Shown here: positions 3,455 to 60,075 of the stretch, piece after piece
Layout of the letters: each line of letters begins with the position of its first letter
Numbering within the stretch: position 1 is the stretch's first letter
Source: Escherichia phage anhysbys
Strand: one strand, 5' to 3'
Length of the DNA stretch: 64,000 bases
Sequence record: NC_052656.1
Program-made: the position numbers and the translations under genes
Notes under the pieces: generated by a model
Seen by the model: the letters and a program-made list of their open reading frames with translations, nothing else
Told to the model about the DNA's origin: nothing
Database searches by the model: none

Positions 3455-3514
3455 TATACTCGCTATCGCTCGACCCTTCGGGGTTAGGGTAGCATATTTT
3501 TTGAAAAAAGTCAA
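3455..3514. repeat. conserved ~60-bp intergenic element, copy 1
   Basis: TACTCGCTATCGCTCG-(hairpin)-TTAGGGTAGCATATTTTTTGAAAAAAGTCAA. Confidence 0.55.
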
Positions 3515-11012: not shown

Positions 11013-11166
11013 GTCCTATACAAACCCTTGTCTTTTTCAGTTTGCATCACTAGGATTCGATCTGAGTGGGTTCCTGAAGGTCTGCCAATAAGATTAAAGG
11101 TTATCTCAAATTCCCATTACCTATTATCTCAAAAATCCCTCAAATTATTTAAACTTTTTAAGAATT

Positions 11167-11212
11167 TACAAAAGTGAAAGTTGAAAACCAAAATTTAAAG
11201 TTTAGGAAAATT
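11167..11212 (+). repeat. AT-rich ~45-bp direct repeat, copy 1
   Basis: TTACAAAAGTGAAAGTTGAAAACCAAAATTTAAAGTTTAGGAAAATT. Confidence 0.6.
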
Positions 11213-11303
11213 ATCTTAAAATGTTAGATACAAAACAAAACTCAAAAGTCAAGGAAAATTTTAAAAATTTTGCGCGCCCACAGTATTTAAAGTTTTTTTG
11301 CTT

Positions 11304-11350
11304 TTACAAAAATGAAAGTACAAAAGCAAAATTTAAAGTTTACAAAAATT
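11304..11350 (+). repeat. AT-rich ~45-bp direct repeat, copy 2
   Basis: TTACAAAAATGAAAGTACAAAAGCAAAATTTAAAGTTTACAAAAATT. Confidence 0.6.
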
Positions 11351-11389
11351 TATGCAGATGGGGATGAGAAGAGTTCTCATGTGGAAATG

Positions 11390-11470
11390 CAAATGATAAT
11401 GATTCGCATTTAGGTTTATAAATGAGAATGATTCTTATTTAATAAAGTAAATGATAATCATTCTCATTTA
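11390..11470 (+). promoter_or_regulatory. three tandem Fur-box-like 21-bp palindromic sites
   Basis: AAATGATAATGATTCGCATTT / AAATGAGAATGATTCTTATTT / AAATGATAATCATTCTCATTT, about 30 bp apart. Confidence 0.5.
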
Positions 11471-11727
11471 GAGAATGACGCGCAGGGGCGGTGTTTGTCT
11501 CGCGCTCCCGTGTCCCCTCGCCATGTAATAAGAATAACAGATCCAACCAGGAAAGCAAGCGATTATTTTATCTTTACATTTCTTTACGAATATATAGCGC
11601 CCAGCCTACCGGCGATCAACCTTCCAACCAGTGCCCCTGGTATGTTAGCCCCGCCTTTACGCCGTGGGGTGGCGCTTCCTCTTCTGTATGTAAAACAGTA
11701 TAAGCCCTATCCCTGGGCTTGTCAAGA

Positions 11728-12831: not shown

Positions 12832-12886
12832 TTGACATTAACGAATAATTTGTTAATATGTTACATAAAGCGGGAATAGTTCCCGC
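12832..12886 (+). promoter_or_regulatory. promoter + 5' stem-loop cassette
   Basis: TTGACA, TTAATAT, GCGGGAA-TAG-TTCCCGC. Confidence 0.6.
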
Positions 12887-12904
12887 TATTTGTAAGGTGG
12901 TAGA

Positions 12905-13162
12905 ATGTTTTACATCAAATTAAAAGGTCACGTGATCGCGTTCAAAGATAACGCTTTTTACAGATTAGCAAAATATGCGTTAATACATCCCCACTATGTT
13001 TATATAAGGGGGCGTGATGAAATAAATATCTTTGATCAAACAACATGCGAGAACATCGAGATCCGCAAGGTTGGCGTACGTGATTATCGTACATCTTTCT
13101 ACCCTTGCAAGGATTCAGCAAGTCTTTTTAAAGTATGCCAATTGTTGAAAAAAGGTGGTTAA
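12905..13162 (+). CDS. hypothetical protein
   Basis: ORF track 85 aa; cassette upstream. Confidence 0.55.
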   Translation: MFYIKLKGHVIAFKDNAFYRLAKYALIHPHYVYIRGRDEINIFDQTTCENIEIRKVGVRDYRTSFYPCKDSASLFKVCQLLKKGG

Positions 13163-13721
13163 TATGGGCCGCGAATATGTGATCCAGTCTTGGGTAAAAC
13201 ATGAAGCAGATGATCCGCGCATCGTTCCCGATCATCTTATCGATGAATCCACGGGATATAGCGGTGAGCAAATAGGTAACAGATTAGCACGTAGTAACGG
13301 CAACGTAAAAGCGCGTTATGTGCGCCCTGGTTGGCTGGCAAATGGTAACGCTGATTTATCCAGTGCGGAAGATGCGAGCGACGGCGCGAAAGATAATCCT
13401 TTGTACAAAATTGATCCGGCTTTTCGTGTCCTGGATGAATACCCCAGCAAGATAGCGGCGCTTGATGAAGCTCTGGAAAGTAAGCGCATCACCTGGACCG
13501 CTTACAACATGGCAAAAAACGTACTTGATGGTAAATTGATTCAAGCCGAAAGAAAATTAGCCAAAATTGCAGCCATAGCCCAGGAGGAAGACGAGGAGAC
13601 AACGGAAGAGGAAGAGTACGAAGAGATCCCGCCGTTGTTGTGTGTTGATGCTTTTCCTGATTATCAGCCGACAGAGGAAGAAAAAAGGATCGCACTAGAA
13701 AACTTTGAAAATAGTCTTTGA
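13155..13721 (+). CDS. hypothetical protein with acidic C-terminus
   Basis: ORF track 188 aa. Confidence 0.6.
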   Translation: MVNMGREYVIQSWVKHEADDPRIVPDHLIDESTGYSGEQIGNRLARSNGNVKARYVRPGWLANGNADLSSAEDASDGAKDNPLYKIDPAFRVLDEYPSKIAALDEALESKRITWTAYNMAKNVLDGKLIQAERKLAKIAAIAQEEDEETTEEEEYEEIPPLLCVDAFPDYQPTEEEKRIALENFENSL

Positions 13722-13775
13722 CATATCGCCGCCACTGGCATAATATTTACCACGTAGGGCGGCAATGGTGCCGCT
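13718..13775 (+). promoter_or_regulatory. promoter + 5' stem-loop cassette
   Basis: TTGACA, CATAAT, GGCGGCA-ATGG-TGCCGC. Confidence 0.6.
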
Positions 13776-13783
13776 CATAGTGA

Positions 13784-13879
13784 AATTATGCAAGAGGTTT
13801 ACAATGATTAATAAAGAAAATAGCTTGACGGTTGGAACGATTAACGCTATCATTTTCGCCGTTCCATTTTGGGTTGTAG
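13784..13879 (+). CDS. tiny hydrophobic protein (~31 aa)
   Basis: Own translation MINKENSLTVGTINAIIFAVPFWVVVAAIIF; sits between two cassettes. Confidence 0.4.
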
Positions 13880-13887
13880 TAGCGGCT

Positions 13888-13949
13888 ATTATTTTCTAAA
13901 AAATATTCTTGACAACGTTTTTTAATCTGATAAGATGTATCACATAGGG
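13888..13949 (+). promoter_or_regulatory. promoter + 5' stem-loop cassette
   Basis: TTGACA, TAAGAT, GGCGGCGGAA-TAC-TTCCCCGCC. Confidence 0.6.
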
Positions 13950-13989
13950 CGGCGGAATACTTCCCCGCCAAAACAAAAAGGGTAACACA

Positions 13990-14352
13990 ATGAGCAAGCA
14001 AATTAATACTATCATGTTTAATCTGGTATCTTTCCGCGACGATATGAAAAATTTACCACGTGAAACGGTTGATATTCATGTTTCAGCTTATCGCGCCCTT
14101 ATTGACATGTTACCGCTAAAACGTGATCAATATGCCGCTAACACGATGCTTAATGCTATGCTTAAAAAGATGATTCAAACGGATCTCACCCTAGCGTATG
14201 AGTATCAAGGGCGCTTATATGCAACTTATAACAAGGCGGTACCTGGTCTGGGAAGTACCGAAGAGTTGCACGGCTTAAACCTGGATCAAAACACTTGGGA
14301 TAGTATGCGCCGCGTTATGGTATGGGCCGAAAGCGGTAAAATTTACGAATAA
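13990..14352 (+). CDS. hypothetical protein
   Basis: ORF track 120 aa; cassette upstream. Confidence 0.6.
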   Translation: MSKQINTIMFNLVSFRDDMKNLPRETVDIHVSAYRALIDMLPLKRDQYAANTMLNAMLKKMIQTDLTLAYEYQGRLYATYNKAVPGLGSTEELHGLNLDQNTWDSMRRVMVWAESGKIYE

Positions 14353-14358
14353 AAACGG

Positions 14359-14417
14359 TTGACACTGTTTAAACTTCTGGTATAGTTTACCACATAGGGC
14401 GGGAAGTGGTTTCCCGC
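14359..14417 (+). promoter_or_regulatory. promoter + 5' stem-loop cassette
   Basis: TTGACA, TATAGT, GCGGGAA-GTGGT-TTCCCGC. Confidence 0.6.
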
Positions 14418-14440
14418 CAACAATGAAAAAGGTTATCATC

Positions 14441-14806
14441 ATGGCTATTAATATTAATGTTTCCGCTTATGCTACCCTGGCTGCCACGGCTAAAATTGAA
14501 TTGTCCAGCATTGAGGCGGTGCACATTAGCGCCCGTCGCTGGTTTCAACAGTCTTACGGTAACACATATTTTTCTTTAATGGTTGACGTTGAGATCGGCG
14601 GTAAACTGATCGAGGTGGTTAACGTTCCGTTTCAATATGGCTATGGTGATCATTTTGATACCGTCGCCCTGGAAGAATTTAGCAAGGTTATTAATATGGA
14701 AGGTAAAGAGTTTTCACGCGGCGCGTATCTTTCCCGTTTTTGCCGTGACAATGGGATCACTGTATACAGTCATGCGAGCGATGTTAAACGTAAAAAAGAT
14801 TTATAA
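14441..14806 (+). CDS. hypothetical protein
   Basis: Track frame 14423-14806; start refined to MAININ (pattern ..ATCATCATGGC shared with other array genes). Confidence 0.6.
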   Translation: MAININVSAYATLAATAKIELSSIEAVHISARRWFQQSYGNTYFSLMVDVEIGGKLIEVVNVPFQYGYGDHFDTVALEEFSKVINMEGKEFSRGAYLSRFCRDNGITVYSHASDVKRKKDL

Positions 14807-14813
14807 AAAGCAT

Positions 14814-14872
14814 TGACAGCACGAATAAAAAGAGTAAACTGTATTACATAGAGAGCGGGAACACTTCCCGCC
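14814..14872 (+). promoter_or_regulatory. promoter + 5' stem-loop cassette
   Basis: TTGACA, TAAACT, GCGGGAA-CAC-TTCCCGC. Confidence 0.6.
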
Positions 14873-14895
14873 TCACTGAAAAAGAGAGAAAAATC

Positions 14896-15135
14896 ATGGC
14901 TAAATCTAAAATGTACAACGGTCACAAAAACAAAACTCATTGGAATGTAAACCTTTGGATTAATAACGATGAATCGTTATACCGGTTGGCCCAAGATTTT
15001 ATTAACGCTAATGCTAATCGTAATGATGCGGCGCGGGATATGATGCTTTTTCTGGAACAAACTGGACAAGATAAAACGCCAGACGGTTTCAAATATAGCA
15101 CTACTGCGATCCGTGCCGCGATGGTTGGAATGTAA
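14896..15135 (+). CDS. hypothetical protein
   Basis: ORF track 79 aa; cassette upstream. Confidence 0.6.
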   Translation: MAKSKMYNGHKNKTHWNVNLWINNDESLYRLAQDFINANANRNDAARDMMLFLEQTGQDKTPDGFKYSTTAIRAAMVGM

Positions 15136-15144
15136 TAAAAACAG

Positions 15145-15203
15145 TTGACAACGTTTAAAATTAGTGTAAGATGTATCACATAGGGCGGGAAGTGGTTTCC
15201 CGC
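15145..15203 (+). promoter_or_regulatory. promoter + 5' stem-loop cassette
   Basis: TTGACA, TAAGAT, GCGGGAA-GTGGT-TTCCCGC (same as 12472 copy). Confidence 0.6.
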
Positions 15204-15225
15204 CAAAACAGAGAGATTAAAGATT

Positions 15226-15453
15226 ATGGCTATCAATATTGTTCGCGTATCTGGCACCGTTGGCACTTCCCAGGTCATTGCCGTTGTAACAAACAAAAAG
15301 ATTAATGATGTATGTGAGATCTTGAATAAGTGGGCTGTTGCTAATTTTGGGGAATATGCAAGCGTTGAGTACATCGAATCCTACCAGGTGCCAACCATCA
15401 GCCTAACCGATCTCAACGTTGATCGCCTGTTATGCCTGGACGAATTAATCTGA
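15226..15453 (+). CDS. hypothetical protein
   Basis: ORF track 75 aa; cassette upstream. Confidence 0.6.
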   Translation: MAINIVRVSGTVGTSQVIAVVTNKKINDVCEILNKWAVANFGEYASVEYIESYQVPTISLTDLNVDRLLCLDELI

Positions 15454-15462
15454 AAAAGATTG

Positions 15463-15519
15463 TTGACACCGGAAAGAAAAAGAGTAAACTGTATTACGTA
15501 GGGCGGCAATGGTGCCGCT
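15463..15519 (+). promoter_or_regulatory. promoter + 5' stem-loop cassette
   Basis: TTGACA, TAAACT, GGCGGCA-ATGG-TGCCGC. Confidence 0.6.
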
Positions 15520-15543
15520 CACAACAGAAGAGAGATTATTACG

Positions 15544-15759
15544 ATGGCCAATATCCGCACACTGTTAAAAAATGCAAGTCAAGTTTTATTTTCAGATGAC
15601 GAGTATTTCAATAAAGACATTACAGGCGTAAAAAATCTTAAAGATGTAAAGGATGTGATAGGTATTCGCGGATCTTTACGTAAAGGTGACTACTACGGCA
15701 ATAAAGTACAATATAAATTAAATCAGTCTTATGATTTTACTTTGACAATTATTTCATAA
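15544..15759 (+). CDS. hypothetical protein
   Basis: ORF track 71 aa; cassette upstream. Confidence 0.55.
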   Translation: MANIRTLLKNASQVLFSDDEYFNKDITGVKNLKDVKDVIGIRGSLRKGDYYGNKVQYKLNQSYDFTLTIIS

Positions 15760-15764
15760 AACCG

Positions 15765-15827
15765 CTTGCAATCTTAATAAAATAAAGTAAACTGTATTAC
15801 ATCAAGGCGGCGGAATGGTCCACCGCC
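15765..15827 (+). promoter_or_regulatory. promoter + 5' stem-loop cassette
   Basis: CTTGCA, TAAACT, GGCGGCGGA-ATGG-TCCACCGCC. Confidence 0.55.
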
Positions 15828-15851
15828 TAACAAAGAGAAGAGGAAAACACC

Positions 15852-16019
15852 ATGATCACTTTCGCTACCCGTGAAGCCGCTCGCAACGTTGCCCGTAAAG
15901 TTAACGCCGCCAACCTGGGCGCTACGTTTAAAGCACCTGTAAAAGATGAATCAGGAAAATGGATCTTCCCTGGTCTGCGTCACGCTGATAAGCTAGGCAC
16001 TTTAAGCCTTAAAAAATAA
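15852..16019 (+). CDS. small hypothetical protein (~55 aa)
   Basis: Own translation MITFATREAARNVARKVNAANLG...; cassette upstream; shares 5' leader and first codons with 16094 gene. Confidence 0.45.
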   Translation: MITFATREAARNVARKVNAANLGATFKAPVKDESGKWIFPGLRHADKLGTLSLKK

Positions 16020-16022
16020 TCG

Positions 16023-16059
16023 TTGACTTTTCGTTATAGCGCCTTATAATGGGCGCTAT
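16023..16059 (+). promoter_or_regulatory. near-consensus sigma70 promoter with -10 inside a palindrome
   Basis: TTGACT-16-TATAAT; inverted repeat ATAGCGCC-TTATAATG-GGCGCTAT encloses -10. Confidence 0.6.
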
Positions 16060-16093
16060 AGAGAAGAGAAACCACTACTGACAAGGAAACACC

Positions 16094-16315
16094 ATGATCA
16101 CTTTCGCTATTGTCGCCGTTGTTGCTGGTCAAGTTTACGTAAACGATACATTCACCACAGAAGACAAGGCCGCAGGAGATATAACCGCCGTTTACAACGA
16201 GTGCAAGGCAGTAGAAAGGATGTTAGCGCCTTGTATGTTAATGAGTGAACGCCAGGACGGGATAACAGTGTTTACTAACATTGAGACAGGGTACCAAATG
16301 GTAGTAACAAAATAA
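16094..16315 (+). CDS. hypothetical protein
   Basis: ORF track 73 aa; TTGACT-16-TATAAT promoter upstream. Confidence 0.55.
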   Translation: MITFAIVAVVAGQVYVNDTFTTEDKAAGDITAVYNECKAVERMLAPCMLMSERQDGITVFTNIETGYQMVVTK

Positions 16316-16318
16316 AGC

Positions 16319-16375
16319 TTGACACGGATTTAATTTTCAGTAAACTGTTACACGTAGGGCGGGAATAGTTCCCGC
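16319..16375 (+). promoter_or_regulatory. promoter + 5' stem-loop cassette
   Basis: TTGACA, TAAACT, GCGGGAA-TAG-TTCCCGC. Confidence 0.6.
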
Positions 16376-16393
16376 TAAAAAGAGAGAAAAACC

Positions 16394-16747
16394 ATGAAAG
16401 CACAAAATGCAATTAAAGAGTACATCCTTGCCGCTATCGATTTTAATGATTACGGTATTACAACCGAAAAAGAGAAGATCGCGGAATTGATGCGCCGTTT
16501 TAATTCCGAGTACTGGTACCCTGATAACCAATCACGTTTTAATTATAGTATTGTTAAAGCACTTGCATCATGGTTACAAGGTTTGCCATCAGATATTAAT
16601 ATCGCTTTCGAATATTGGGAAATTGATCGCTTGTTAACATCCTGGGGATACATTAAAGAGAATAGCAGCGATGATAAAATCCAACGAGAAAGGGAAAATT
16701 ATTGGCTTTATATTGCAGGCGTGATCCTTGCTTGCTCTTATGAATGA
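16394..16747 (+). CDS. hypothetical protein
   Basis: ORF track 117 aa; cassette upstream. Confidence 0.6.
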   Translation: MKAQNAIKEYILAAIDFNDYGITTEKEKIAELMRRFNSEYWYPDNQSRFNYSIVKALASWLQGLPSDINIAFEYWEIDRLLTSWGYIKENSSDDKIQRERENYWLYIAGVILACSYE

Positions 16748-16753
16748 TAAACC

Positions 16754-16807
16754 TTGACAATTTTACAAAACAGTTTAAATTAATAATATAGCGGCAATGG
16801 TGCCGCT
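16754..16807 (+). promoter_or_regulatory. promoter + 5' stem-loop cassette
   Basis: TTGACA, TAATAA/AATATA, GCGGCA-ATGG-TGCCGC. Confidence 0.55.
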
Positions 16808-16826
16808 CATATAAAGAGGAAACAAA

Positions 16827-16973
16827 ATGAATACATCTAATCGCGCAGAAAAAATCCAATCTTCCAAGATCCGCAAGGCCTGGAACGAGGAAGTGATCCG
16901 CAAAGGCGACAAGCGCAATAAAACAAAGCGCGGGAAGAGTGACAAATATAATTGGATGGATTTAGAGGATTAA
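16827..16973 (+). CDS. small basic protein (~48 aa)
   Basis: Own translation MNTSNRAEKIQSSKIRKAWNEEVIRKGDKRNKTKRGK...; cassette upstream, terminator downstream. Confidence 0.45.
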   Translation: MNTSNRAEKIQSSKIRKAWNEEVIRKGDKRNKTKRGKSDKYNWMDLED

Positions 16974-16979
16974 CATAAC

Positions 16980-17007
16980 AAGGGCGCACCAAGCGCCCTT
17001 TCTTTTT
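16980..17007 (+). terminator. rho-independent terminator
   Basis: AAGGGCGC-ACCA-AGCGCCCTT + TCTTTTT. Confidence 0.7.
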
Positions 17008-17028
17008 ACATGTAGAGGATAAACAAAG

Positions 17029-17214
17029 ATGACTTTAAGCGAGCTTAAAACAGCCTACAACGCAACGTTAAAAATAGCCGTGCGTTACCGTGATGCGTAC
17101 GGTTTTATCGCGCAGGGCGTGATCCTGGGCTTTTCTGACGATGGTTTGATCTATGTTGATGCACATTATAACAAGGTAAAACCTGAAAACGTCATTAGCA
17201 TAAAATATCTTTAA
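17029..17214 (+). CDS. hypothetical protein
   Basis: ORF track 61 aa. Confidence 0.5.
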   Translation: MTLSELKTAYNATLKIAVRYRDAYGFIAQGVILGFSDDGLIYVDAHYNKVKPENVISIKYL

Positions 17215-17220
17215 AAGTGG

Positions 17221-17280
17221 TTGACACCATAACCGGACCTGTTAAACTGTATTACATCAGGCGGGGAATAGTTCCCCACC
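17221..17280 (+). promoter_or_regulatory. promoter + 5' stem-loop cassette
   Basis: TTGACA, TAAACT, GCGGGGAA-TAG-TTCCCCAC. Confidence 0.6.
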
Positions 17281-17299
17281 ATACAAAAAGGTAAATATT

Positions 17300-17506
17300 A
17301 TGATCACCGCAAAACAAGAGAAAATCATTATCGACGTTGCAGCCGTTGCCGCTATTGCTATTATTGGATCTTATTATGATACCCGTTTCCCGTCGGCTAT
17401 GCATGAGATCGCCGCCGTTGCATCAGTTGGCGTACTGTTTTACGTTGGTAAACGCTATTTATCACCAATGATTAACAAGCTGACACCGTGGAAAAATAAA
17501 GGTTGA
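17300..17506 (+). CDS. small membrane protein
   Basis: ORF track 68 aa; hydrophobic IIIDVAAVAAIAIIGSYY / AAVASVGVLFYVG. Confidence 0.55.
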   Translation: MITAKQEKIIIDVAAVAAIAIIGSYYDTRFPSAMHEIAAVASVGVLFYVGKRYLSPMINKLTPWKNKG

Positions 17507-17557
17507 TCCTGTTTTATATTGTGTTATAGTTATCGTGTAGGGCGGCAATGGTGCCGC
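17503..17557 (+). promoter_or_regulatory. promoter + 5' stem-loop cassette
   Basis: TTGATC, TATAGT, GGCGGCA-ATGG-TGCCGC. Confidence 0.55.
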
Positions 17558-17577
17558 GCCCCTTTGAGGATGCAATC

Positions 17578-17862
17578 ATGAGTAAAGCTAACACCGTGCT
17601 AATGTTTTCCCTGATTAATGATCCCGCTTACTTGTCCAACATGACGCAGGAGGGTAACACATTAACGGCAACATTCACCAATAAGCTTGACCGGGTGATC
17701 ATCATCTCACTGAAAACAGTTAGTAAAGGCTTTTACTCGTTAGCTTATCATTGGATCACCGATACCGATGAGACAAGCCAGGACTATAGCGCCCCTTTCC
17801 CTGAATCAATGGCACGGGAGATCATCGCCGCCGTTGTAAATGATGGTTTGTTTACTGCATAA
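17578..17862 (+). CDS. hypothetical protein
   Basis: Track frame; start refined to MSKANTVLMF downstream of cassette. Confidence 0.6.
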   Translation: MSKANTVLMFSLINDPAYLSNMTQEGNTLTATFTNKLDRVIIISLKTVSKGFYSLAYHWITDTDETSQDYSAPFPESMAREIIAAVVNDGLFTA

Positions 17863-17880
17863 AATAATTTAGAAAAAGGC

Positions 17881-17937
17881 TTGCAATCATTTTGAGATAG
17901 TGTATATTTAATTCATAGGGCGGCGGGAATAGTTCCC
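17881..17937 (+). promoter_or_regulatory. promoter + 5' stem-loop cassette
   Basis: TTGCAA, TATATT, GGGAA-TAG-TTCCC. Confidence 0.55.
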
Positions 17938-17960
17938 AAAGCAAACGAGAGGATTACACG

Positions 17961-18080
17961 ATGAGCAAGTACACAGTAGAATACACGGTAGAAAATCCGG
18001 CAGTATCCGAAGGTAAAAAGATGACATTTGCCATCAGTATAATCGCTTTCGTTGTCACTATCTTATCAATCATCTTATAA
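17961..18080 (+). CDS. tiny membrane protein (~39 aa)
   Basis: Own translation MSKYTVEYTVENPAVSEGKKMTFAISIIAFVVTILSIIL; cassette upstream. Confidence 0.4.
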   Translation: MSKYTVEYTVENPAVSEGKKMTFAISIIAFVVTILSIIL

Positions 18081-18090
18081 GGTGCACACC

Positions 18091-18252
18091 ATGAAAACAA
18101 CAGATATTATCAAAGAGATCGCCCATGCCGCTGGCGTTGAGATCGAGGAAGTGATCGCGCTCAATCTTACAGAAAACGATCTGCGCAACTATGAAGCGGA
18201 AAGCGTGAAAGCAAGCGGCGCGGTCCTGGTATATGATCCGGCTAACAAGTAA
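18091..18252 (+). CDS. hypothetical protein
   Basis: Track frame 18052-18252; start refined to MKTTDIIKE after AAGGTG. Confidence 0.5.
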   Translation: MKTTDIIKEIAHAAGVEIEEVIALNLTENDLRNYEAESVKASGAVLVYDPANK

Positions 18253-18261
18253 GGGGATAAC

Positions 18262-18372
18262 ATGAATCCGAAAGATATGCAAGCATGGAAAGGGTACGAC
18301 GATCTAAGCGCCTTGCGCAATAAGTCAAGCCGTAACCTTAGACGGTTGGAAGCAAAGAAAAAGAAAAAATAG
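18262..18372 (+). CDS. tiny basic protein (~36 aa)
   Basis: Own translation MNPKDMQAWKGYDDLSALRNKSSRNLRRLEAKKKKK; AAGGGGA RBS. Confidence 0.35.
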   Translation: MNPKDMQAWKGYDDLSALRNKSSRNLRRLEAKKKKK

Positions 18373-18373
18373 T

Positions 18374-18430
18374 TTGACAAGTCCGCCTAGTCTGATAATA
18401 TGTATCTTGTAGGGCGGCAATGGTGCCGCT
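18374..18430 (+). promoter_or_regulatory. promoter + 5' stem-loop cassette
   Basis: TTGACA, TAATAT, GGCGGCA-ATGG-TGCCGC. Confidence 0.6.
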
Positions 18431-18450
18431 CACAAGAAGAGAGAAAAATC

Positions 18451-18735
18451 ATGAAAATCACAAAAAGCCTAACTAATTATGCAGCACGTCGCGGATTATG
18501 TTTAACCGTTGAAAACTTAGGGAAAGAAGACTTTTTGTGTTTTTGGGAGCTTGAAAATGATTGCGAGTGGATGTTTTCTTATTCTATCTGCGAAGATCAA
18601 AACGGTTGTTTGTTAACCTGGCGCGGTAATATCTATTTACCGGAAGAAATTAAAGAAGAGTTACCAGGTACGATCATGACAGAGAGACAGCTTAAGGAAA
18701 TGATTAATTTTGTAGGGCAAAACATTAAAAAATAA
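18451..18735 (+). CDS. hypothetical protein
   Basis: Track frame; start refined to MKITKSL downstream of cassette. Confidence 0.6.
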   Translation: MKITKSLTNYAARRGLCLTVENLGKEDFLCFWELENDCEWMFSYSICEDQNGCLLTWRGNIYLPEEIKEELPGTIMTERQLKEMINFVGQNIKK

Positions 18736-18736
18736 T

Positions 18737-18797
18737 TTGACAGCACGCAAACAACGTAGTAAAGTTTACCACATAGGGCGGCGGAATGGTCCACCGC
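18737..18797 (+). promoter_or_regulatory. promoter + 5' stem-loop cassette
   Basis: TTGACA, TAAAGT, GGCGGCGGA-ATGG-TCCACCGC. Confidence 0.55.
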
Positions 18798-18820
18798 TCA
18801 CAACAGAAGAGAAACAAATC

Positions 18821-18991
18821 ATGATCCCGACTATGTTTTATGTATCGCGCAAAGGTCACAATATTTTTTGGTCTGAAGATTTAAATGAAGCTATGACGTT
18901 TGCCCGTGATCGTGTTGCTATCGGTGGCGTTAACATCACCGTAACCGATGAAAATGGCATTGAATACTATAACGGCGACGATGAAGAATAA
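18821..18991 (+). CDS. hypothetical protein
   Basis: Track frame; start refined to MIPTMFYVSRKG downstream of cassette. Confidence 0.5.
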   Translation: MIPTMFYVSRKGHNIFWSEDLNEAMTFARDRVAIGGVNITVTDENGIEYYNGDDEE

Positions 18992-19038
18992 TTAATGAGG
19001 CGGGGGAGTATTCCCCGCCGTCAATAAAGAGGTAAATC

Positions 19039-19308
19039 ATGAAAATATCATTGGACGTTGCAATCAAGGCCATCGAATCCGGTTACATCCTGGTAAAAGA
19101 TGATAAGGCTAAAATAGTGCATCATGTTAACAAGGAAACAGGCGAAAGCATGATCACATATAAAGCCGCCTACTTTCTCCAATCAGTAGCAGATCCGCGC
19201 GTACAACGCCAGGTTATGGCGGCTATTGCTAAAAAATTATGTGCTTTACAGGGTACAAGTTTTAACGAGATCGCCCCGTGTTTTGAGTGGTCAAGCTTGA
19301 AAAAATAA
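19039..19308 (+). CDS. hypothetical protein
   Basis: ORF track 89 aa; GC hairpin upstream. Confidence 0.55.
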   Translation: MKISLDVAIKAIESGYILVKDDKAKIVHHVNKETGESMITYKAAYFLQSVADPRVQRQVMAAIAKKLCALQGTSFNEIAPCFEWSSLKK

Positions 19309-19309
19309 T

Positions 19310-19370
19310 TTGACAACAATTATAAATCGGGTAGAATGTATTTCGTAGGGCGGGGCAATAAAGCAACGCC
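19310..19370 (+). promoter_or_regulatory. promoter + degenerate 5' stem-loop cassette
   Basis: TTGACA-16-TAGAAT; GGGCG...CGCCC weaker stem. Confidence 0.5.
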
Positions 19371-19389
19371 CATTAATGAGGGTAGAATC

Positions 19390-19494
19390 ATGTTAGAGAA
19401 AATTTTCACGGTTGTAATAGTGGGCCTGGCGTTATCGGTTGGAGTGGTTGCAACTATGGCTAACATGATCCTATCTTCCCACGGTATCGGTTAA
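19390..19494 (+). CDS. tiny membrane protein (~34 aa)
   Basis: Own translation MLEKIFTVVIVGLALSVGVVATMANMILSSHGIG; cassette upstream. Confidence 0.35.
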   Translation: MLEKIFTVVIVGLALSVGVVATMANMILSSHGIG

Positions 19495-19504
19495 GGTGAA
19501 ACAA

Positions 19505-19720
19505 ATGATCACGAACAAAACAGGCAAAACGGAATTTTTACGCGGCTTACAAGTTGGTAAGCCTGAGATCTGGCATTGCACGAAGTCCGCGCATAATGAA
19601 ATGAAAGATTTTACCGCTACTTTACAACGTGTTAAAATATCTATCACACAGAAAAAAGCCTTGTTAGTAGTAGAAAACGAGATCCCGCAAACTATTATTA
19701 TTGTCGAGCGTACAGCATGA
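19505..19720 (+). CDS. hypothetical protein
   Basis: Track frame 19496-19720 (GTG) ; ATG at 19505 preferred. Confidence 0.5.
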   Translation: MITNKTGKTEFLRGLQVGKPEIWHCTKSAHNEMKDFTATLQRVKISITQKKALLVVENEIPQTIIIVERTA

Positions 19721-20103
19721 AAACAGAAATCATTATTGAAATCATCAACGGCTATAAAGAAGCCTTTATTTTTGCTGAATCAGCAAGGGATCATGAAGGT
19801 AATTTTATTGATAACTTAGACGATTATGATTTTTCTCCTAGCGCGGATCAACGGATCGCACAGGATGTAACAGCCTTTATTAATGCTAATCTTGCCGCTA
19901 TCTCTGAGGCAATGAGCGACGGCGCAACAGCCAACCAGATCGGGAATGATTTACATTTTACCCGTAACGGTCACGGCGTAGGCTTTTGGGATCGCCCTGA
20001 AATATACACCACTAACACGGCGAACCGCCTAACCAATGCAGCTAAGTTTATGCCGAACGTGTCGGCTTACGTTGGTGAAGATAATTTTATTTATATTGAA
20101 TAA
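19717..20103 (+). CDS. hypothetical protein
   Basis: ORF track 128 aa; ATGA overlap. Confidence 0.6.
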   Translation: MKTEIIIEIINGYKEAFIFAESARDHEGNFIDNLDDYDFSPSADQRIAQDVTAFINANLAAISEAMSDGATANQIGNDLHFTRNGHGVGFWDRPEIYTTNTANRLTNAAKFMPNVSAYVGEDNFIYIE

Positions 20104-20109
20104 AAAGTA

Positions 20110-20166
20110 TTGACACAGATCGCCAGTGTGCTAATATTTACCACGTAGGGCGGCAATGGTGCCGCT
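20110..20166 (+). promoter_or_regulatory. promoter + 5' stem-loop cassette
   Basis: TTGACA-16-TAATAT, GGCGGCA-ATGG-TGCCGC. Confidence 0.6.
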
Positions 20167-20187
20167 CCCCGAAAAAGGTAAAACATT

Positions 20188-20379
20188 ATGAAAACTATCA
20201 GCTACCTGGAATCGAATAACATGTTTTTTGCGCCCGTTGATGAAATCATCGAAGCATTAAACAACGAGGAAGGGATCAATGGTTTATCTTATAGCCAGCT
20301 TTTAGGAATGGTTGCAGCAAATGAGGAGCTTGCTTACTATGTTGAAAATTTTGATGAAGCTGTAATCTTTACAAAATAA
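20188..20379 (+). CDS. hypothetical acidic protein
   Basis: ORF track 63 aa; cassette upstream. Confidence 0.55.
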   Translation: MKTISYLESNNMFFAPVDEIIEALNNEEGINGLSYSQLLGMVAANEELAYYVENFDEAVIFTK

Positions 20380-20382
20380 TCC

Positions 20383-20439
20383 TTGATCTAATCTCTCAGA
20401 TAACTTATATTTAATGCGTAGGGCGGCAATGGTGCCGCC
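20383..20439 (+). promoter_or_regulatory. promoter + 5' stem-loop cassette
   Basis: TTGATC, TATATT, GGCGGCA-ATGG-TGCCGCC. Confidence 0.55.
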
Positions 20440-33878: not shown

Positions 33879-33948
33879 ATAATAAATACCTTGACAAGTG
33901 TTTATTCATTTTGTAAAGTGAGAATACAGCAATGGTTTAGGAGTGGTT

Positions 33949-34620
33949 ATGAAAAAGTTTGTTGTTTACAGTCGTCTTTCTAAACAGAAAAAAGGCGAGG
34001 CACAATATGGTATGGAGAGCCAAGAGAACGATATCCGTTACTTCTTAGACTCTGTGCCTGATGCGGAAGTTATTGGTCAATTTTCTGAATACTATTCGGG
34101 TAAGGGCGATTGGAAGCAACGTAAGGAACTGGTTAAAGCGGTTGAAATGTGTAAAGCTACCGGAGCAACTTTATTGGTAGCTAAAGTTGACCGCTTGGGT
34201 CGTAACAACGCCTCCGTAGCAACTCTTCTAGAAATGATTGATGTTAAGATAGCCATTATGCCAGATGCAGATAAAATGGTTATACAGCTTCTGTCTGTTC
34301 TGGCTGAACAAGAGGTTAGAGGTATTGCTGATCGTATTAAAAAGGGTCTTGCTGTAGCAAAAAGCAAAGGTGTTTTATTAGGCAGTGCTAATCCTAAAAC
34401 TGCCGCTGCACGTAGAAAAGGAAAAATGGAATACAACTCTGTTAAAGCAGACGCTTTTGCAGAGACATTTCGTGAACGTTTGGAGATCCTGAGAGATTTA
34501 AATACACCTTACAAAACTATTGCTGAAAAATTCAATAGTAAGAAAATAGCAACAGCACGTGGTGGTAAATGGGATGCTAAGACTGTTTCTCGTTTGTGTG
34601 CCAGACTGAACATTAAATAG
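33949..34620 (+). CDS. serine recombinase (resolvase/invertase family)
   Basis: N-terminal VYSRLS (catalytic Ser context), LLVAKVDRLGRN, E.R.I..RIKKGL..AK; C-terminal ARGGKWDAKTVSRL; own TTGACA promoter upstream. Confidence 0.7.
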   Translation: MKKFVVYSRLSKQKKGEAQYGMESQENDIRYFLDSVPDAEVIGQFSEYYSGKGDWKQRKELVKAVEMCKATGATLLVAKVDRLGRNNASVATLLEMIDVKIAIMPDADKMVIQLLSVLAEQEVRGIADRIKKGLAVAKSKGVLLGSANPKTAAARRKGKMEYNSVKADAFAETFRERLEILRDLNTPYKTIAEKFNSKKIATARGGKWDAKTVSRLCARLNIK

Positions 34621-37006: not shown

Positions 37007-37426
37007 ATGTTAGGTAAGATCAAAGCTTTTTTCAAACGTATTGTTGAAGGAAGTCCAACAGAAGGTGCATTAGGAAGATCTCTAACAGGAGAACCACTTG
37101 CCATAATTTCTATCAGTCGGCATGGCGGATATTCCATTCGACAAACACCTTTAGGTATAAAAGGTAGTATGCTTTCTTGGACAATATCTCAAGTTGGTGA
37201 TAACAGACTTGCAGCTATAGCATTGCTTCGTGGGGAGTATGACTATTGTTTATCAGCATCTTGTAAAAAGCACCTCATAGAGCACATTAGAGACAGAGTA
37301 GAAAGAGAAGGCGGATACTTCTTCGAAACTAAGAGAAACGAACAAGGAACTCTTGACTTCACTAAGGTTTACTGGGACAATCATACTCGTCAAACTGTTG
37401 AACAACTTCTGGAGGAAAGATGTTAA
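37007..37426 (+). CDS. hypothetical protein
   Basis: ORF track 139 aa; AAGGGGGA RBS. Confidence 0.55.
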   Translation: MLGKIKAFFKRIVEGSPTEGALGRSLTGEPLAIISISRHGGYSIRQTPLGIKGSMLSWTISQVGDNRLAAIALLRGEYDYCLSASCKKHLIEHIRDRVEREGGYFFETKRNEQGTLDFTKVYWDNHTRQTVEQLLEERC

Positions 37427-37629
37427 AAGCTTTTGCTGTATACTCTACTGTAGGATTCTTTTATTGGATTATAGTTATTGTCGGATGTTGGTTAGGTTCT
37501 TGTGTTGTGATGGGAGAATGGTTAACATACAACGTATTTGAATGGGATGTAGTTTGTAGATCATTACTTGTTATATGGACTGCTATTGTTTGTTGGACAA
37601 CTGTTAGTCTAACATTGGATCTATACTGA
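37420..37629 (+). CDS. small membrane protein
   Basis: ORF track 69 aa; hydrophobic, Trp/Cys-rich. Confidence 0.5.
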   Translation: MLKAFAVYSTVGFFYWIIVIVGCWLGSCVVMGEWLTYNVFEWDVVCRSLLVIWTAIVCWTTVSLTLDLY

Positions 37630-37730
37630 TTAATAGATGGTAGATAGATGATCATAGTTTATCTACCTTCACTTACGTTTCATACCTCACTATCGTGAGT
37701 AACATGAAACATTATTATATAGAAATCTAC

Positions 37731-37788
37731 TACTCGCTATCGCTCGTAAACATATGTTTAGGGTACCATATTTTTTTGAAAAAGTCAA
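37731..37788. repeat. conserved ~60-bp intergenic element, copy 2
   Basis: TACTCGCTATCGCTCG-(AAACATATGTTT palindrome)-TTAGGGTACCATATTTTTTTGAAAAAGTCAA. Confidence 0.55.
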
Positions 37789-37797
37789 TGCTGATTC

Positions 37798-37889
37798 ACC
37801 TATCAATTATCTGTTTAAGATAAGTCTTACCTATCAATCTAACTCTTAACTAGTATTGCACCTATAGTAAGATTATTCCTATGGTTATT
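37798..37889 (+). repeat. iteron-like ACCTAT(C/A) repeats (4 copies)
   Basis: CACCTATCAATTA, TACCTATCAATCTA, CACCTATAGTAAG, TCCTATGGTTATT. Confidence 0.45.
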
Positions 37890-37989
37890 AACCCTCTTCT
37901 TCTATAGAATGTAATTAGATCCTTGACAAACTCACAAAACTTGTGTTACATTGTGTCTCACAGGTGAATAATACCGAACAGGAGGAAGA

Positions 37990-38205
37990 ATGAGTTCCAA
38001 TTTTCTATACAAAGCAAAAGATTCACGAGATGGAGAGAAACATTGGTGGTTGATCACAGGAGATGGTGTTATCATCCTACCGTGGGACGGAGAGACAAAA
38101 GTTCAAATACTGGAGAAAGTAAAAGGTGTTAGTTTTAATGTTAGTCATGACATAACAACTTTCAAAGCTTTTGCAATGAATCCCAGTCTTGTTGCTGAAT
38201 GGTAA
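37990..38205 (+). CDS. hypothetical protein
   Basis: ORF track 71 aa; TTGACA promoter and AGGAGGAAG RBS upstream. Confidence 0.5.
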   Translation: MSSNFLYKAKDSRDGEKHWWLITGDGVIILPWDGETKVQILEKVKGVSFNVSHDITTFKAFAMNPSLVAEW

Positions 38206-38218
38206 TCCAGGAGAAAAT

Positions 38219-38437
38219 ATGACTAAAATGTATGCAGCCGTTGATAAGCTGGATGGGTCTGATTCTGTTTTTATTTTGAATAAAATGGGTGTCTTAGTTT
38301 ATGCCCGAACTTCTCAAAACATAGAGCACCAAGTGGAAGCAGCACAAATTTTAGAGCAAATAACCCCTCCATACCTATACTCAAATGTTGAGCGTTTTAA
38401 CGATGCACTTGGTTTGACGTTAATAGCGGAATGGTAA
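38219..38437 (+). CDS. hypothetical protein
   Basis: Track frame 38189-38437; start refined to MTKMYAAV after CAGGAGAAAA. Confidence 0.5.
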   Translation: MTKMYAAVDKLDGSDSVFILNKMGVLVYARTSQNIEHQVEAAQILEQITPPYLYSNVERFNDALGLTLIAEW

Positions 38438-38439
38438 TA

Positions 38440-38637
38440 ATGGCGAAAATGTTGAAAATTGATAATGTCGTAACAATCACTACGTCTATACCTTGTCCTC
38501 CTATGCCTTGCCCCTATTGTGGTGGTGCAGGATATGTTATGGCGGATGTAGGTCAAATTTACGAGTGTAACCCGTGCAAAACCACAGGTTATATCCAAAT
38601 AGAATCAGAGGAGAAACACTATGAGCCAAAACGCTAA
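38440..38637 (+). CDS. small zinc-ribbon protein
   Basis: Track frame; CPPMPCPYCGG ... CNPCKTTG. Confidence 0.45.
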   Translation: MAKMLKIDNVVTITTSIPCPPMPCPYCGGAGYVMADVGQIYECNPCKTTGYIQIESEEKHYEPKR

Positions 38638-57834: not shown

Positions 57835-60075
57835 TCACATCTTGCAAGCTTCACAACCACCATCAGAATCTTCTTGTGCTAAAGAGTCTGCTGATTTTGT
57901 TCTACTATTAAGGTAATACAACGACTTACCACCCAGTCTAGCAAAATTCAGAATAAACTGCATCTCAGCTTTCACTGATAAACGTCCACCTACCAATTTA
58001 GAATAATCTAGCCAAGAATCACAAGAAATTCCTTGGTCCGTAAACTTGGTAAAGATACCATACATTTCTGCAAGGTCTTTAGCAGGAGTGTCCCAGGCGG
58101 ACTGGTAGAACATTTTCAGTTTTTCGTAGTCTGGAACAATAAATAATACACTACCTTTCTGACTTTGTTTATACATAATAGTATCACGAACAGGATACAG
58201 AGAGTTAGTAGTATTGCTTACCAAACTGCTGGACTCATTAGGTGCGATAGCAGCCAAGACACTGTTACGGATACCACCTTGTTCAATGATTTCAGCACGT
58301 AAGCCTTCCCAATCCATTTTAAGATCAAAATTACCGATACTATCTACTGTTTTAGCATAAGTGTCAATTGGTAGCCAACCTTGAGGCCATTTGGTCTTAT
58401 CGATCCATTCCGCATTACCTTTTTCCTTAGCCAGACGCAGAGAGGCTTTTGCCAACCAAAAGTAATGACGTTCTGCAAGTTCATGCATTAATTTTTTAGC
58501 ATAAGCATCTGAATAATTTACAAAATTACTTGCCAAGTAATGTGCTAAGTTTGTAATACCTACACCAATAGATCTACGTGCTTTAGCAGTTATTTCGTTA
58601 TGTTTAAATGGATAATCCATTGTTTCAATAACGTTGTCAATTGTCAATACAGTGTAGTATGCAACATCCTCATATTCTTCAGGTAAGACACGACCAGCAA
58701 CAATAGAAGATAAGAAGCATAAAGCCAATTCTTGATCTTCTGTATTCTCACCAGTAAAGAGATCCGGCATACTGTGGAAAGCTTTAGTTGGTAAGAAGAT
58801 CTCTTGACACAGGTTTGATTGATACACCGTATCCAGGAAAGGTGTATGGTTGTTAACGTTGTCCGCAAAGAACATGTAAATACGTCCTGTTTCTGCACGT
58901 TGAACAATAATCTCTGTCAGAAGATCACGAGCCTTAACAAATTTTTTCTTAATGCGACGACGGCTTACTTTGTCATAAACTGCATCAAACTCTTCTTCAC
59001 TTTTATACAAAGCTTCATAAAGTTCAGGAGCATCATCACAACTAACTAACATCCAATCTTCGTTTTTTGCTGCTCGACGCAAGAACGAACGGTTAACAAC
59101 AATAGAATAATCCAGTTTGTCTACTCGTTTATCTATAGGTGTTGTTGGATTCTTCAGTCGAATCAGATCGTCGAAGTCTGGTTCAAGTATGGTAAAGGTA
59201 ACTGTAGCACTACCTCCACGGCTTGCTTGCTTCGAAGCTCCAACACTATCTTCCATCCATTTCAGATACGGAAGAAGACCACCATGAATAATACGATTAT
59301 TCTTAACACCTTGACCTGTGGCACGAGTTTGAAGATTAACACCAATACCTGCGTTATTCAACGTATACTCATGAGCTAAGTAATTAGCAATGGCTAAAGA
59401 CTCTGCTGTGTCATCTGCACGGAATAAACAACAAGACGCACTTCCTTTGATTGGAGTTCGTAGAGTTGTCAGATATGGTGATGGCAGATTAATCTTAAGA
59501 TCGCTAACATAAGTATACAGTTTTTTAATATCTTCTATACGGCGTTCTTTTGGTTGGATCTCCATAACCTTCATTGCGATACCAATGAAAAGAAACTGTG
59601 GAGACTCATGCACCACATCGTTTACTGCATCTCGGATAAGATATTTATCCACCATCTGACGTAAAACAGAATAGCCATAAGTTAGATTTTTATTATGCTT
59701 TACAATCTTACCAATTTCTTTGATCTCTTCATCAGTATAATCCATTTTAGCCCAATGTCCACGTTCTACCATATCATGATAAAAGGTATTCAGTGAAGGG
59801 ATACTGTGGTATCCCCCATGAGCCTGTTTGTAAATCATACCCAGAAGAAGTCTTCCTGCCATATCACTGTAAGCTTGTGTTTTCTTGTCAATACACGCTG
59901 CAATCATTGCTTTATGCAGATCACGTGTAGACACACCGTCATAACACCGCTTCACAGCTTCTAATTCAATTTCAGACCAGTTTAGTTTACCTGCTGCAAA
60001 TTCAGACCACTTGCGAAGTTTTTCTGGATTAAACTCCTCTATCTTACCGTTAGATTTAGTTACAAAACGAATCAA
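57835..60075 (-). CDS. nrdA: ribonucleotide reductase class Ia alpha subunit
   Basis: 746 aa; N-terminal ATP-cone-like region, C-terminal Cys pair; paired with nrdB. Confidence 0.9.
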   Translation of the reverse strand: MIRFVTKSNGKIEEFNPEKLRKWSEFAAGKLNWSEIELEAVKRCYDGVSTRDLHKAMIAACIDKKTQAYSDMAGRLLLGMIYKQAHGGYHSIPSLNTFYHDMVERGHWAKMDYTDEEIKEIGKIVKHNKNLTYGYSVLRQMVDKYLIRDAVNDVVHESPQFLFIGIAMKVMEIQPKERRIEDIKKLYTYVSDLKINLPSPYLTTLRTPIKGSASCCLFRADDTAESLAIANYLAHEYTLNNAGIGVNLQTRATGQGVKNNRIIHGGLLPYLKWMEDSVGASKQASRGGSATVTFTILEPDFDDLIRLKNPTTPIDKRVDKLDYSIVVNRSFLRRAAKNEDWMLVSCDDAPELYEALYKSEEEFDAVYDKVSRRRIKKKFVKARDLLTEIIVQRAETGRIYMFFADNVNNHTPFLDTVYQSNLCQEIFLPTKAFHSMPDLFTGENTEDQELALCFLSSIVAGRVLPEEYEDVAYYTVLTIDNVIETMDYPFKHNEITAKARRSIGVGITNLAHYLASNFVNYSDAYAKKLMHELAERHYFWLAKASLRLAKEKGNAEWIDKTKWPQGWLPIDTYAKTVDSIGNFDLKMDWEGLRAEIIEQGGIRNSVLAAIAPNESSSLVSNTTNSLYPVRDTIMYKQSQKGSVLFIVPDYEKLKMFYQSAWDTPAKDLAEMYGIFTKFTDQGISCDSWLDYSKLVGGRLSVKAEMQFILNFARLGGKSLYYLNSRTKSADSLAQEDSDGGCEACKM

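Follow-up and report, generated by a model that had tools for sequence, protein, structure and literature searches.

The DNA analysed here, a 64,000-nucleotide stretch referred to as the window, belongs to a Phapecoctavirus, i.e. a phAPEC8-like coliphage of the subfamily Stephanstirmvirinae. The 2 kb surrounding the repeats of interest share 98.5% identity with ESCO25, ESCO5 and Ro121c4YLVW and 98.4% with phAPEC8, with comparable similarity to about 60 further Phapecoctavirus phages; window positions equal phAPEC8 positions plus 17321, wrapping across the record ends. The repeat locus lies inside a long series of small plus-strand early genes, and the features considered below are as follows:

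3457-3514, minus strand: second copy of the cassette core, without boxes, repeating 37729-37790 and preceding minus-strand genes
37420-37629, plus strand: gene for a 69-aa hydrophobic membrane protein, left neighbour of the repeat spacer
37639-37842 (204 nt), no strand assigned: non-coding cassette, homologous to phiWec179 and containing boxes 1 and 2 and the inverted half-site
37639-37667, no strand assigned: hairpin A, GGTAGATA...TATCTACC, at the left edge of the cassette; annotated in ASO2A as a terminator
37677-37710, no strand assigned: hairpin B, GTTTCAT...ATGAAAC around CTCAC-TATC-GTGAG, with 2 compensatory pairs between the phAPEC8 and phiWec clades
37704-37823, plus strand: 39-codon ORF (42 codons from a start at 37695), annotated in relatives (phAPEC8 gp264, ASO2A_058)
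37733-37777, plus strand: stem-loop overlapping the -10 of the leftward promoter-like site, with arms in CTCGCTATCGCTCG (37733-37746) and TTAGGGTAC (37758-37766), an apical palindrome (37747-37760) and a run of seven T (37771-37777)
37760-37788, minus strand: leftward sigma-70-type promoter-like site, TTGACT (37788-37783), 17-nt spacer, TGG (37768-37766) and TACCCT (37765-37760)
37798-37807, plus strand: box 1, ACCTATCAAT, exact copy (core CCTAT at 37799-37803)
37819-37824, no strand assigned: inverted half-site GATAAG, the reverse complement of CCTATC at 5/6 positions, 14 nt after box 1
37829-37838, plus strand: box 2, ACCTATCAAT, exact copy, 31 bp start-to-start from box 1
37859-37866, plus strand: box 3, CACCTATA (ACCTATA), in phase at +31 from box 2; weak, lineage-specific
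37876-37884, plus strand: box 4, TTCCTATGG (TCCTATG), out of phase, 17-18 bp past box 3; weak, lineage-specific
37923-37952, plus strand: rightward promoter-like TTGACA-N18-TACATT, 10/12 consensus with a TG, preceding gene 37990-38205
37973-37985, plus strand: box-like ACCGAAC before the Shine-Dalgarno (SD) AGGAGG (SD at 37980) of gene 37990
37990-38205, plus strand: gene for a 71-aa protein, right neighbour of the repeat spacer

A sequence-only reading of this DNA had described four spaced copies of a CACCTATCAAT-like sequence in a 360-nt ORF-free spacer, just upstream of a TTGACA promoter at about 37922. The spacer has the length given (37630-37989, 360 nt). It does contain the 39-codon ORF, whose annotated frame differs by lineage, each frame being interrupted by stops in some lineage. 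Because no frame is kept across lineages the ORF is probably not a gene, and "ORF-free" is effectively right, given that the frame is broken or shifted elsewhere. The TTGACA promoter-like site was confirmed as a consensus match (TTGACA at 37923, N18, TACATT to 37952); it is kept inside the phAPEC8 clade and absent from other lineages. The ACCGAAC sequence preceding gene 37990 resembles the junctions between box 2 and the SD (ACCGATAAGGAG, ACCGATTAGGAGG) that precede the orthologue of this gene in other lineages.

No DNA-binding gene was found next to the site, the ten neighbouring proteins giving no informative Pfam or PHROG match. Further to the left, positions 33943-34620 (plus strand) encode a 225-aa protein with an N-terminal serine-recombinase domain (Resolvase, PF00239; E = 5e-18), a gene that sits in the early region of a lytic phage and has no adjoining box motif. 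To the right, positions 38431-38637 (plus strand) encode a zinc-ribbon, DnaJ-like protein of 68 aa in which CxxCxGxG occurs twice and for which the PHROG label "DNA ligase" looks wrong. This zinc-ribbon gene is located 0-4 genes downstream of the cassette in the window, phiWec179, EmilieFrey, KP13-26 and phi1_175008, with Tr1 as the exception; as a candidate cognate protein for the boxes it is only a lead.

The four repeats lie where the sequence-only reading had placed them, two being good copies and the other two weak, with box 4 having just CCTAT in common with the other boxes; the inverted half-site between boxes 1 and 2 had been missed. Tested against background, the short motif proved not to be enriched, ACCTATM occurring 13 times in the window against 13.3 expected (and 21 times, scattered, in the phAPEC8 genome), and ACCTATCAAT with at most one mismatch 8 times against 6.1 expected. 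By the condition for refutation that the sequence-only reading had itself set, a similar frequency throughout the window, enrichment of the short motif therefore fails, and the local cluster alone stands out. The CCTAT cluster comprises four copies in 84 nt, where any 230-nt window elsewhere, on either strand, holds a maximum of two, and the box 1/box 2 pair is the sole occurrence of the exact 10-mer ACCTATCAAT in the 147.7-kb phAPEC8 genome. Short spaced repeats are themselves frequent in this DNA: exact direct repeats of at least 10 nt within 11-60 nt number 16 in the window against 3.9 in Markov simulations, equally spaced 6-mer triples number 7 against 0.7 expected, and a pair with an in-phase third copy arose in 22 of 400 simulated windows (5.5%). 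The statistics alone are suggestive, not decisive, and boxes 1 and 2 are set beyond chance by their conservation rather than by sequence statistics.

Conservation within the genus was assessed from an alignment of eight Phapecoctavirus genomes, five from the phAPEC8 clade and three from the phiWec/PsgM04F clade. Only 1 of the 20 positions in the 10-mers of boxes 1 and 2 varies, whereas the remaining 30 positions of 37791-37840 include 12 variable ones (Fisher p = 0.0075; eight genomes), and the 9-mer cores of the two boxes show no variation at all (0/18; p = 0.0016, same genomes). Boxes 3 and 4 show no constraint in this alignment (3/17 positions variable versus 13/65 in their surroundings): in ukendt, box 3 reads CACCCAT and box 4 TTCTTAT (TTCTTATGG), and in ASO2A, B15 and ECML183 box 4 reads TTCCTATAG. 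Within the phAPEC8 clade, variable columns amount to 3% in the hairpin region, 1.6% in what has been termed the "conserved element", 12% in the block of boxes 1 and 2 (all of them outside the boxes), 19.5% in the block of boxes 3 and 4, and 4.5% from the TTGACA promoter through the ATG.

Comparison with the phiWec clade delimits the conserved unit. Homology starts at 37639 and breaks off at 37842, just past box 2, with 83% identity to phiWec179 across this interval, against 67-68% or undetectable similarity in the neighbouring genes and 39% identity for the protein upstream of the cassette. The phiWec clade lacks boxes 3 and 4, and has another gene and promoter directly after box 2. Given that this homology ends after box 2, we tie boxes 1 and 2 to the "conserved element" on their left and not to the TTGACA promoter; as judged from the alignments, they are part of a 204-nt cassette conserved above its flanking genes, with boxes 3 and 4 outside it. 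The latter two fall within a fast-evolving insert of approximately 130 nt between box 2 and the ancestral box-SD junction, and the TTGACA promoter lies in the same insert. Box 4 with its flank, AGATTATTCCTATGGTTA (AGATTATTCCTAT-GTTA), is nearly identical to the box-1 context of Citrobacter phage Tr1, AGATTATTCCTATCGTTA, which suggests that boxes 3 and 4 stem from recombination of one related cassette with another, the process put forward for the promoter-early stem-loop cassettes (PeSLs) of T4-like phages (PMC2839356, PMC4122927). In the phAPEC8 clade they may serve as weak additional sites.

Beyond the genus, we compared 11 Stephanstirmvirinae lineages, drawn from GenBank and metagenomes, by aligning the sequence that follows the cassette core on the right. 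The same antisense layout is also seen in Justusliebigvirus (EmilieFrey, 99.4 kb), Citrobacter phage Tr1, the Klebsiella phages KP13-26 and phi1_175008, and five metagenomic lineages. Present in the 11 lineages are three islands, CCkAT, rATmGr and CkAT, with invariant columns CC-AT, ATA-like and C-AT, separated by bases that cannot be aligned across the same lineages. Box 1 (CCkAT) lies 8 nt beyond the complement of the -35 in 11/11 lineages, the inverted half-site reaches a perfect GATAGG in Tr1 and in the lineages L174 and L187, and box 2 (CkAT) is found at +31 from box 1 in ten lineages and at +32 in one. From the -35 complement to box 2, no indel was observed in ten lineages and one extra base in phi1_175008, while the leftward portion of the cassette differs in length between lineages. 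Different genes flank the cassette in different lineages; outside Phapecoctavirus, the gene after box 2 encodes a membrane protein, a zinc-ribbon protein of the CxxCxGxG type, or a member of the "LYK...NPxLIAEW" family (the orthologue of gene 37990).

A scan of IMG/VR with the box pair recovered one true relative, the phiWec-like L159, the remaining matches being unrelated repeats; a loose pattern for the cassette core gave chance matches only in the same collection. In the two Klebsiella phages the DNA upstream of the cassette (KP13-26, positions 600-690) consists of tandem TAATTAGTTAATAAT-like repeats, which are absent from the window. The records of JLBYU50 and inny (Justusliebigvirus) start about 100 nt to the left of the cassette; a genome end at this point was considered and rejected, since the start bases differ between the two, and the record starts probably reflect an annotation or orientation convention.

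Read on the minus strand, every copy of the cassette core shows the series TTGACT, N17 (N18 in the third copy), TGn and TACCCTA, after which come a short palindrome and CGAGCGATAGCGAG. The TG-TACCCTA element and the 17-nt spacing (18 in one paralog) are constant in all copies and lineages seen, whereas the -35 drifts among TTGACT, TTGATT and TTTACT. With TACCCT matching the -10 consensus at 3/6 positions, the site falls below the threshold of the promoter scan and hence was not called; its form would place a leftward start near 37753. A plus-strand stem joins GCTATCGCTCG to TTAGGGTAGC, enclosing a variable apical hairpin, and a T-run follows. In plus-strand folds the TAGGGTAGC arm lies in a stem in 6/7 copies, and the apical hairpin varies with compensation and is palindromic in most. 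The lower stem of the 37.7-kb copy in the window is broken by a G to C change, so that only a short apical stem forms (-5.9 kcal/mol, weak); the hairpin of the 3.4-kb copy is strong (-16.4, z = -2.6). Because the -35 drifts at fixed spacing, and because the promoter hexamers are kept in L187 and in the 57.86-kb copy, both of which lack the T-run, we take the promoter reading as primary, with an additional plus-strand terminator or attenuator role being possible.

The phAPEC8 genome contains three copies of this core, of which only the antisense copy is accompanied by boxes. The third copy, at phAPEC8 57862-57920 and outside the window, lies on the other strand and, like that at 3457-3514, is box-less; both read TTGACT-N17/18-TGCTACCCTA, palindrome, CGAGCG(AT/C)AGCGAG and face downstream genes. 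The paralogs at 3.4 kb, at 70.8 kb in EmilieFrey and at 57.86 kb in phAPEC8 all point toward downstream genes, unlike the 37.7-kb copy, which points against them, and these forward-facing copies carry AT-rich DNA in place of the boxes. Hairpin B also bears at its top CACTATCG, a diverged copy of the cassette arm CGCTATCG (a 17-nt repeat at 76% identity, 47 nt apart). The two strands of the structured cassette RNA fold about equally well, an Rfam search of 36.5-39 kb returned two chance snoRNA matches only, and no intrinsic terminator or minus-strand U-tract follows the leftward start in the cassette sequences examined. In the literature on Stephanstirmvirinae we found no transcript maps, binding data or motif descriptions.

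Among known systems, the cassette most resembles PeSLs, for which promoter and terminator activity have been measured (Arbiol et al. 2010, PMC2839356; Comeau et al. 2014, PMC4122927). Shared features include a short conserved intergenic cassette among small variable early genes, a sigma-70-type promoter (a promoter-like site in the present case) with a stem-loop overlapping its -10, an edge at the Shine-Dalgarno of the next gene, repetition in the genome, variable attached genes, and breakpoints at the cassette edge, here an exchange point at 37842. As to sigma-70-like hexamers 16-18 bp apart, the TTGACT-N17-TGnTACCCT spacing is kept in all copies, with a -10 that agrees with the consensus at 3/6 positions and is not called by the scan. 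Several differences were identified: the promoter here points against the flanking genes, there are only three copies per genome, the -10 is an unusual invariant TACCCTA, the CGAGCGATAGCGAG arm is conserved, and the position upstream of the -35 that is AT-rich in PeSLs is occupied by a fixed module of box, inverted box and second box. Also, the activity of the present cassette is a prediction from sequence, as opposed to the measured activity of PeSLs. Elsewhere in the window, at 12869-20437, we found 12 copies of the stem-loop GGCGGSAATRGTKCCS (0.16 expected). Copies of this GGCGGCAATGGTGCCG family that were checked against phAPEC8 sit just 3' of TTGACA-N17-TAnnnT, at sites carrying the phAPEC8 annotation "PHIRE promoters"; the 12-copy family (TTGACA-N17-TAnnnT followed by GGCGGCAATGGTGCCG) looks like a separate and more PeSL-like promoter/stem-loop family.

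From the anatomy, conservation and fixed geometry of the site we infer promoter activity, protein binding and a regulatory effect. Specifically, and with slightly less than even confidence, we favour a reading in which boxes 1 and 2 (CCTATCAAT) and GATAAG are predicted protein docking sites beside the conserved leftward promoter-like core. The core would act as a sigma-70-type promoter firing leftward, against the rightward early genes, with a stem-loop over its -10. Box 1, the inverted half-site and box 2 would be centred at approximately -48, -68 and -79 from the putative start at 37753, i.e. about 2 and 3 helical turns apart, which would place the three sites on one face of the DNA. A DNA-binding protein, of phage or host origin, docked on these sites could set the activity of the leftward promoter, and the same protein, lying across the path of the rightward operon, could alter read-through into gene 37990. 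Boxes 3 and 4 would then be lineage-specific extras in the fast-evolving insert that also brought the TTGACA promoter. That their geometry is fixed, phased and copy-specific is our main ground for regarding the boxes as DNA targets of a protein acting on the leftward promoter. Points against this reading are the 3/6 match of the -10, which the scan does not call, the lack of a DNA-binding gene next to the site and of an intrinsic terminator after the leftward start, and the placement of box 2 against the SD in nine lineages, which would suit a role at the RNA level as well. The box motif is found nowhere else in the phAPEC8 genome, so that the boxes provide no regulon by which a factor could be corroborated.

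Operator and activator sites are arrayed at phage promoters in lambda OR and P22 immI, and the present sites are similar in being repeated and inverted, spaced by whole turns beside a promoter, and better conserved than the DNA between them. Both hallmarks of such an array, conservation above the spacers and a fixed, phased geometry, are seen in boxes 1 and 2, and the earlier suggestion of a regulator binding array is reasonable for these two (invariant in eight genomes, with fixed spacing in 11 lineages) and does not extend to boxes 3 and 4. The islands differ from the known arrays in measuring 5-10 bp rather than the 17-21 bp of the operators, and in being placed away from the promoter itself, at -48 to -79. 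Small antisense RNAs inside phage early operons, exemplified by lambda OOP and P22 sar, offer a further parallel, with a promoter antisense in an early operon just past the end of a gene and hairpins in a predicted transcript of about 115 nt. Features of a cis-antisense sRNA are present in the promoter-like site and in hairpin B with its two compensatory pairs; unlike OOP and sar, the cassette is without a minus-strand U-tract terminator or an Rfam match, its upstream gene is not conserved between lineages, and its transcript is predicted only. A bolder extension, which we consider improbable, is that the site represents a regulated leftward transcription unit conserved across Stephanstirmvirinae, in which the three phased sites would recruit a phage or host factor to switch on, within the early operon, the structured antisense RNA of about 115 nt, or a replication-priming transcript. 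The RNA would govern when the early genes upstream are shut off or insulated. Given that the cassette copy at 37.7 kb is inverted, rightward read-through RNA containing CUCGCUAUCGCUCG would be complementary to the 5' leaders of the two sense copies, and could act in trans.

Several other identities were tried for the boxes and rejected. With WATCAANNNNTTR, the IHF consensus, box 1 agrees at 8/9 positions and box 2 at 6/9; sites with at most one mismatch number 119 in the window against 139 expected, and the TTR is not conserved in the phiWec clade. A rightward sigma-70 promoter with box 1 as its -10 would have C in place of the essential A at -11, despite TTnnCA lying 17 nt upstream in every lineage. 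A type I toxin-antitoxin pair, comprising the 69-aa hydrophobic protein and a convergent RNA, is disfavoured by the unrelated upstream genes of other lineages. The boxes also resemble the NarL heptamer TACYYMT, FNR half-sites and the OmpR-like TTTACTTTTG, resemblances to which we give no weight. As a separate observation, an ORF-poor region of the window (approximately 11050-11500) contains at 11391-11470 three copies, 29 bp apart, of the palindromic AAATGAtAATsATTCtcATTT, adjoined by the short repeats ATTTAAAGTTT and TTTACAAAAAT; these palindromes resemble E. coli Fur boxes (GATAATGATAATCATTATC).

A serious if rather unlikely alternative, the main rival, is that the boxes act not as DNA but in the leader of the plus-strand mRNA, as anti-Shine-Dalgarno-like UUCC/CACCU sequences, as hairpins with the inverted box, or as unpaired targets of a translational repressor. 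In 9/11 lineages only 1-3 nt separate box 2 from the AGGAGG of the following gene, in KP13-26 box 2 falls between the SD and the ATG, and the window retains ACCGAAC directly before the SD of gene 37990; the Phapecoctavirus boxes are nevertheless invariant at about 140-170 nt from the SD in the phAPEC8 clade, and with at least one inserted gene between them and the SD in the phiWec clade. A hairpin with a UUCCkA loop is possible in L174 (GGAUUA/UAAUCC), L188 (AGAUUA/UAAUCU) and, with G.U pairs, L184, and pairing between the inverted box and box 2 is perfect in five lineages, covarying once (L188, AUCG:CGAU). When both hairpins were tested, with the flanks of box 1 pairing mutually and the inverted box pairing with box 2, 70% of cells paired versus 67% in shuffles (39 of 500 shuffles being as high), covariation did not exceed that of the shuffles, and the T/G change of the box is unmatched in the inverted box of phi1, L184 and L187. 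RNA hairpins involving the boxes were consequently set aside as lacking covariation support. Less probable again, and to our minds distinctly unlikely, is that the boxes have no function. They would then be fortuitous matches, or marks left by recombination or duplication where a mobile regulatory cassette ends, and would owe their conservation to hitch-hiking with its core. The short motif is not enriched, 16 comparable 10-mer repeats occur in the window, simulations yield a pair with an in-phase third copy at the rate given above, and boxes 3 and 4 change at the pace of the sequence around them. The similarity of box 4 and its flank to the box-1 context of Tr1 is what recombination from cassette to cassette would be expected to leave, the homology breakpoint falls directly after box 2, and PeSL cassettes are known recombination sites (PMC2839356, PMC4122927). 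Hitch-hiking leaves unexplained, however, why 11 lineages preserve the boxes at exact distances when the spacers are scrambled, as well as the contrast between boxes and spacers within one genus.

The least credible of the readings, very improbable on the present evidence, is the one implied by the term "iteron-like": that the locus is a replication origin, with the boxes as iterons for an initiator and the adjoining promoter priming or activating replication. Iteron-type origins, exemplified by lambda ori and the iteron plasmids, similarly contain repeats of the same orientation and regular spacing in non-coding DNA. The repeats here are regularly spaced and direct, they lie beside a promoter, and a leftward transcript would begin with the G-rich CGAGCGATAGCGAG and continue into AT-rich DNA. 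The boxes differ from iterons in unit length and copy number: where an iteron origin would have a jointly conserved series of at least three direct repeats, each of about 17-22 bp, here 10 bp are common to two copies and 5-7 bp to the others, so that the repeat core measures 5-10 bp and two copies only are conserved. Neither an initiator, a helicase loader nor any other replication gene was detected among the ten neighbouring proteins (Pfam/PHROG), and in phAPEC8 the genes for primase/helicase and polymerase are located at 103-109 kb, about 80 kb away. GC skew is flat and positive (approximately +0.14) over 32-40 kb, with no switch in composition at the boxes; its only turns, near 5 kb and 41 kb, coincide with changes of gene orientation. 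In a study of rV5, skew changes likewise track transcription direction only (PMC3606486). Of three cassette-core copies per genome, moreover, only one has boxes. On unit length, copy number, the lack of a nearby initiator gene and the absence of a skew turn, the earlier reading of the repeats as iterons bound by an initiator is not supported.

For that original claim, the value of these results is mainly negative: nothing supports an iteron origin at the locus, and of the four repeats only two merit further study. The site falls into a known general class, cis sites associated with a promoter within a PeSL-like cassette of a phage; both this motif and this cassette were previously undescribed. 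Phages of the rV5/phAPEC8-like group are widely isolated and are candidates for therapy, with a gene regulation that is essentially unmapped. Given its conservation above the surrounding genes, its predicted promoter directed against the early operon and its fixed module of three sites, the cassette provides a testable handle on the timing or insulation of early transcription, and it probably also serves as a junction at which early genes are shuffled.
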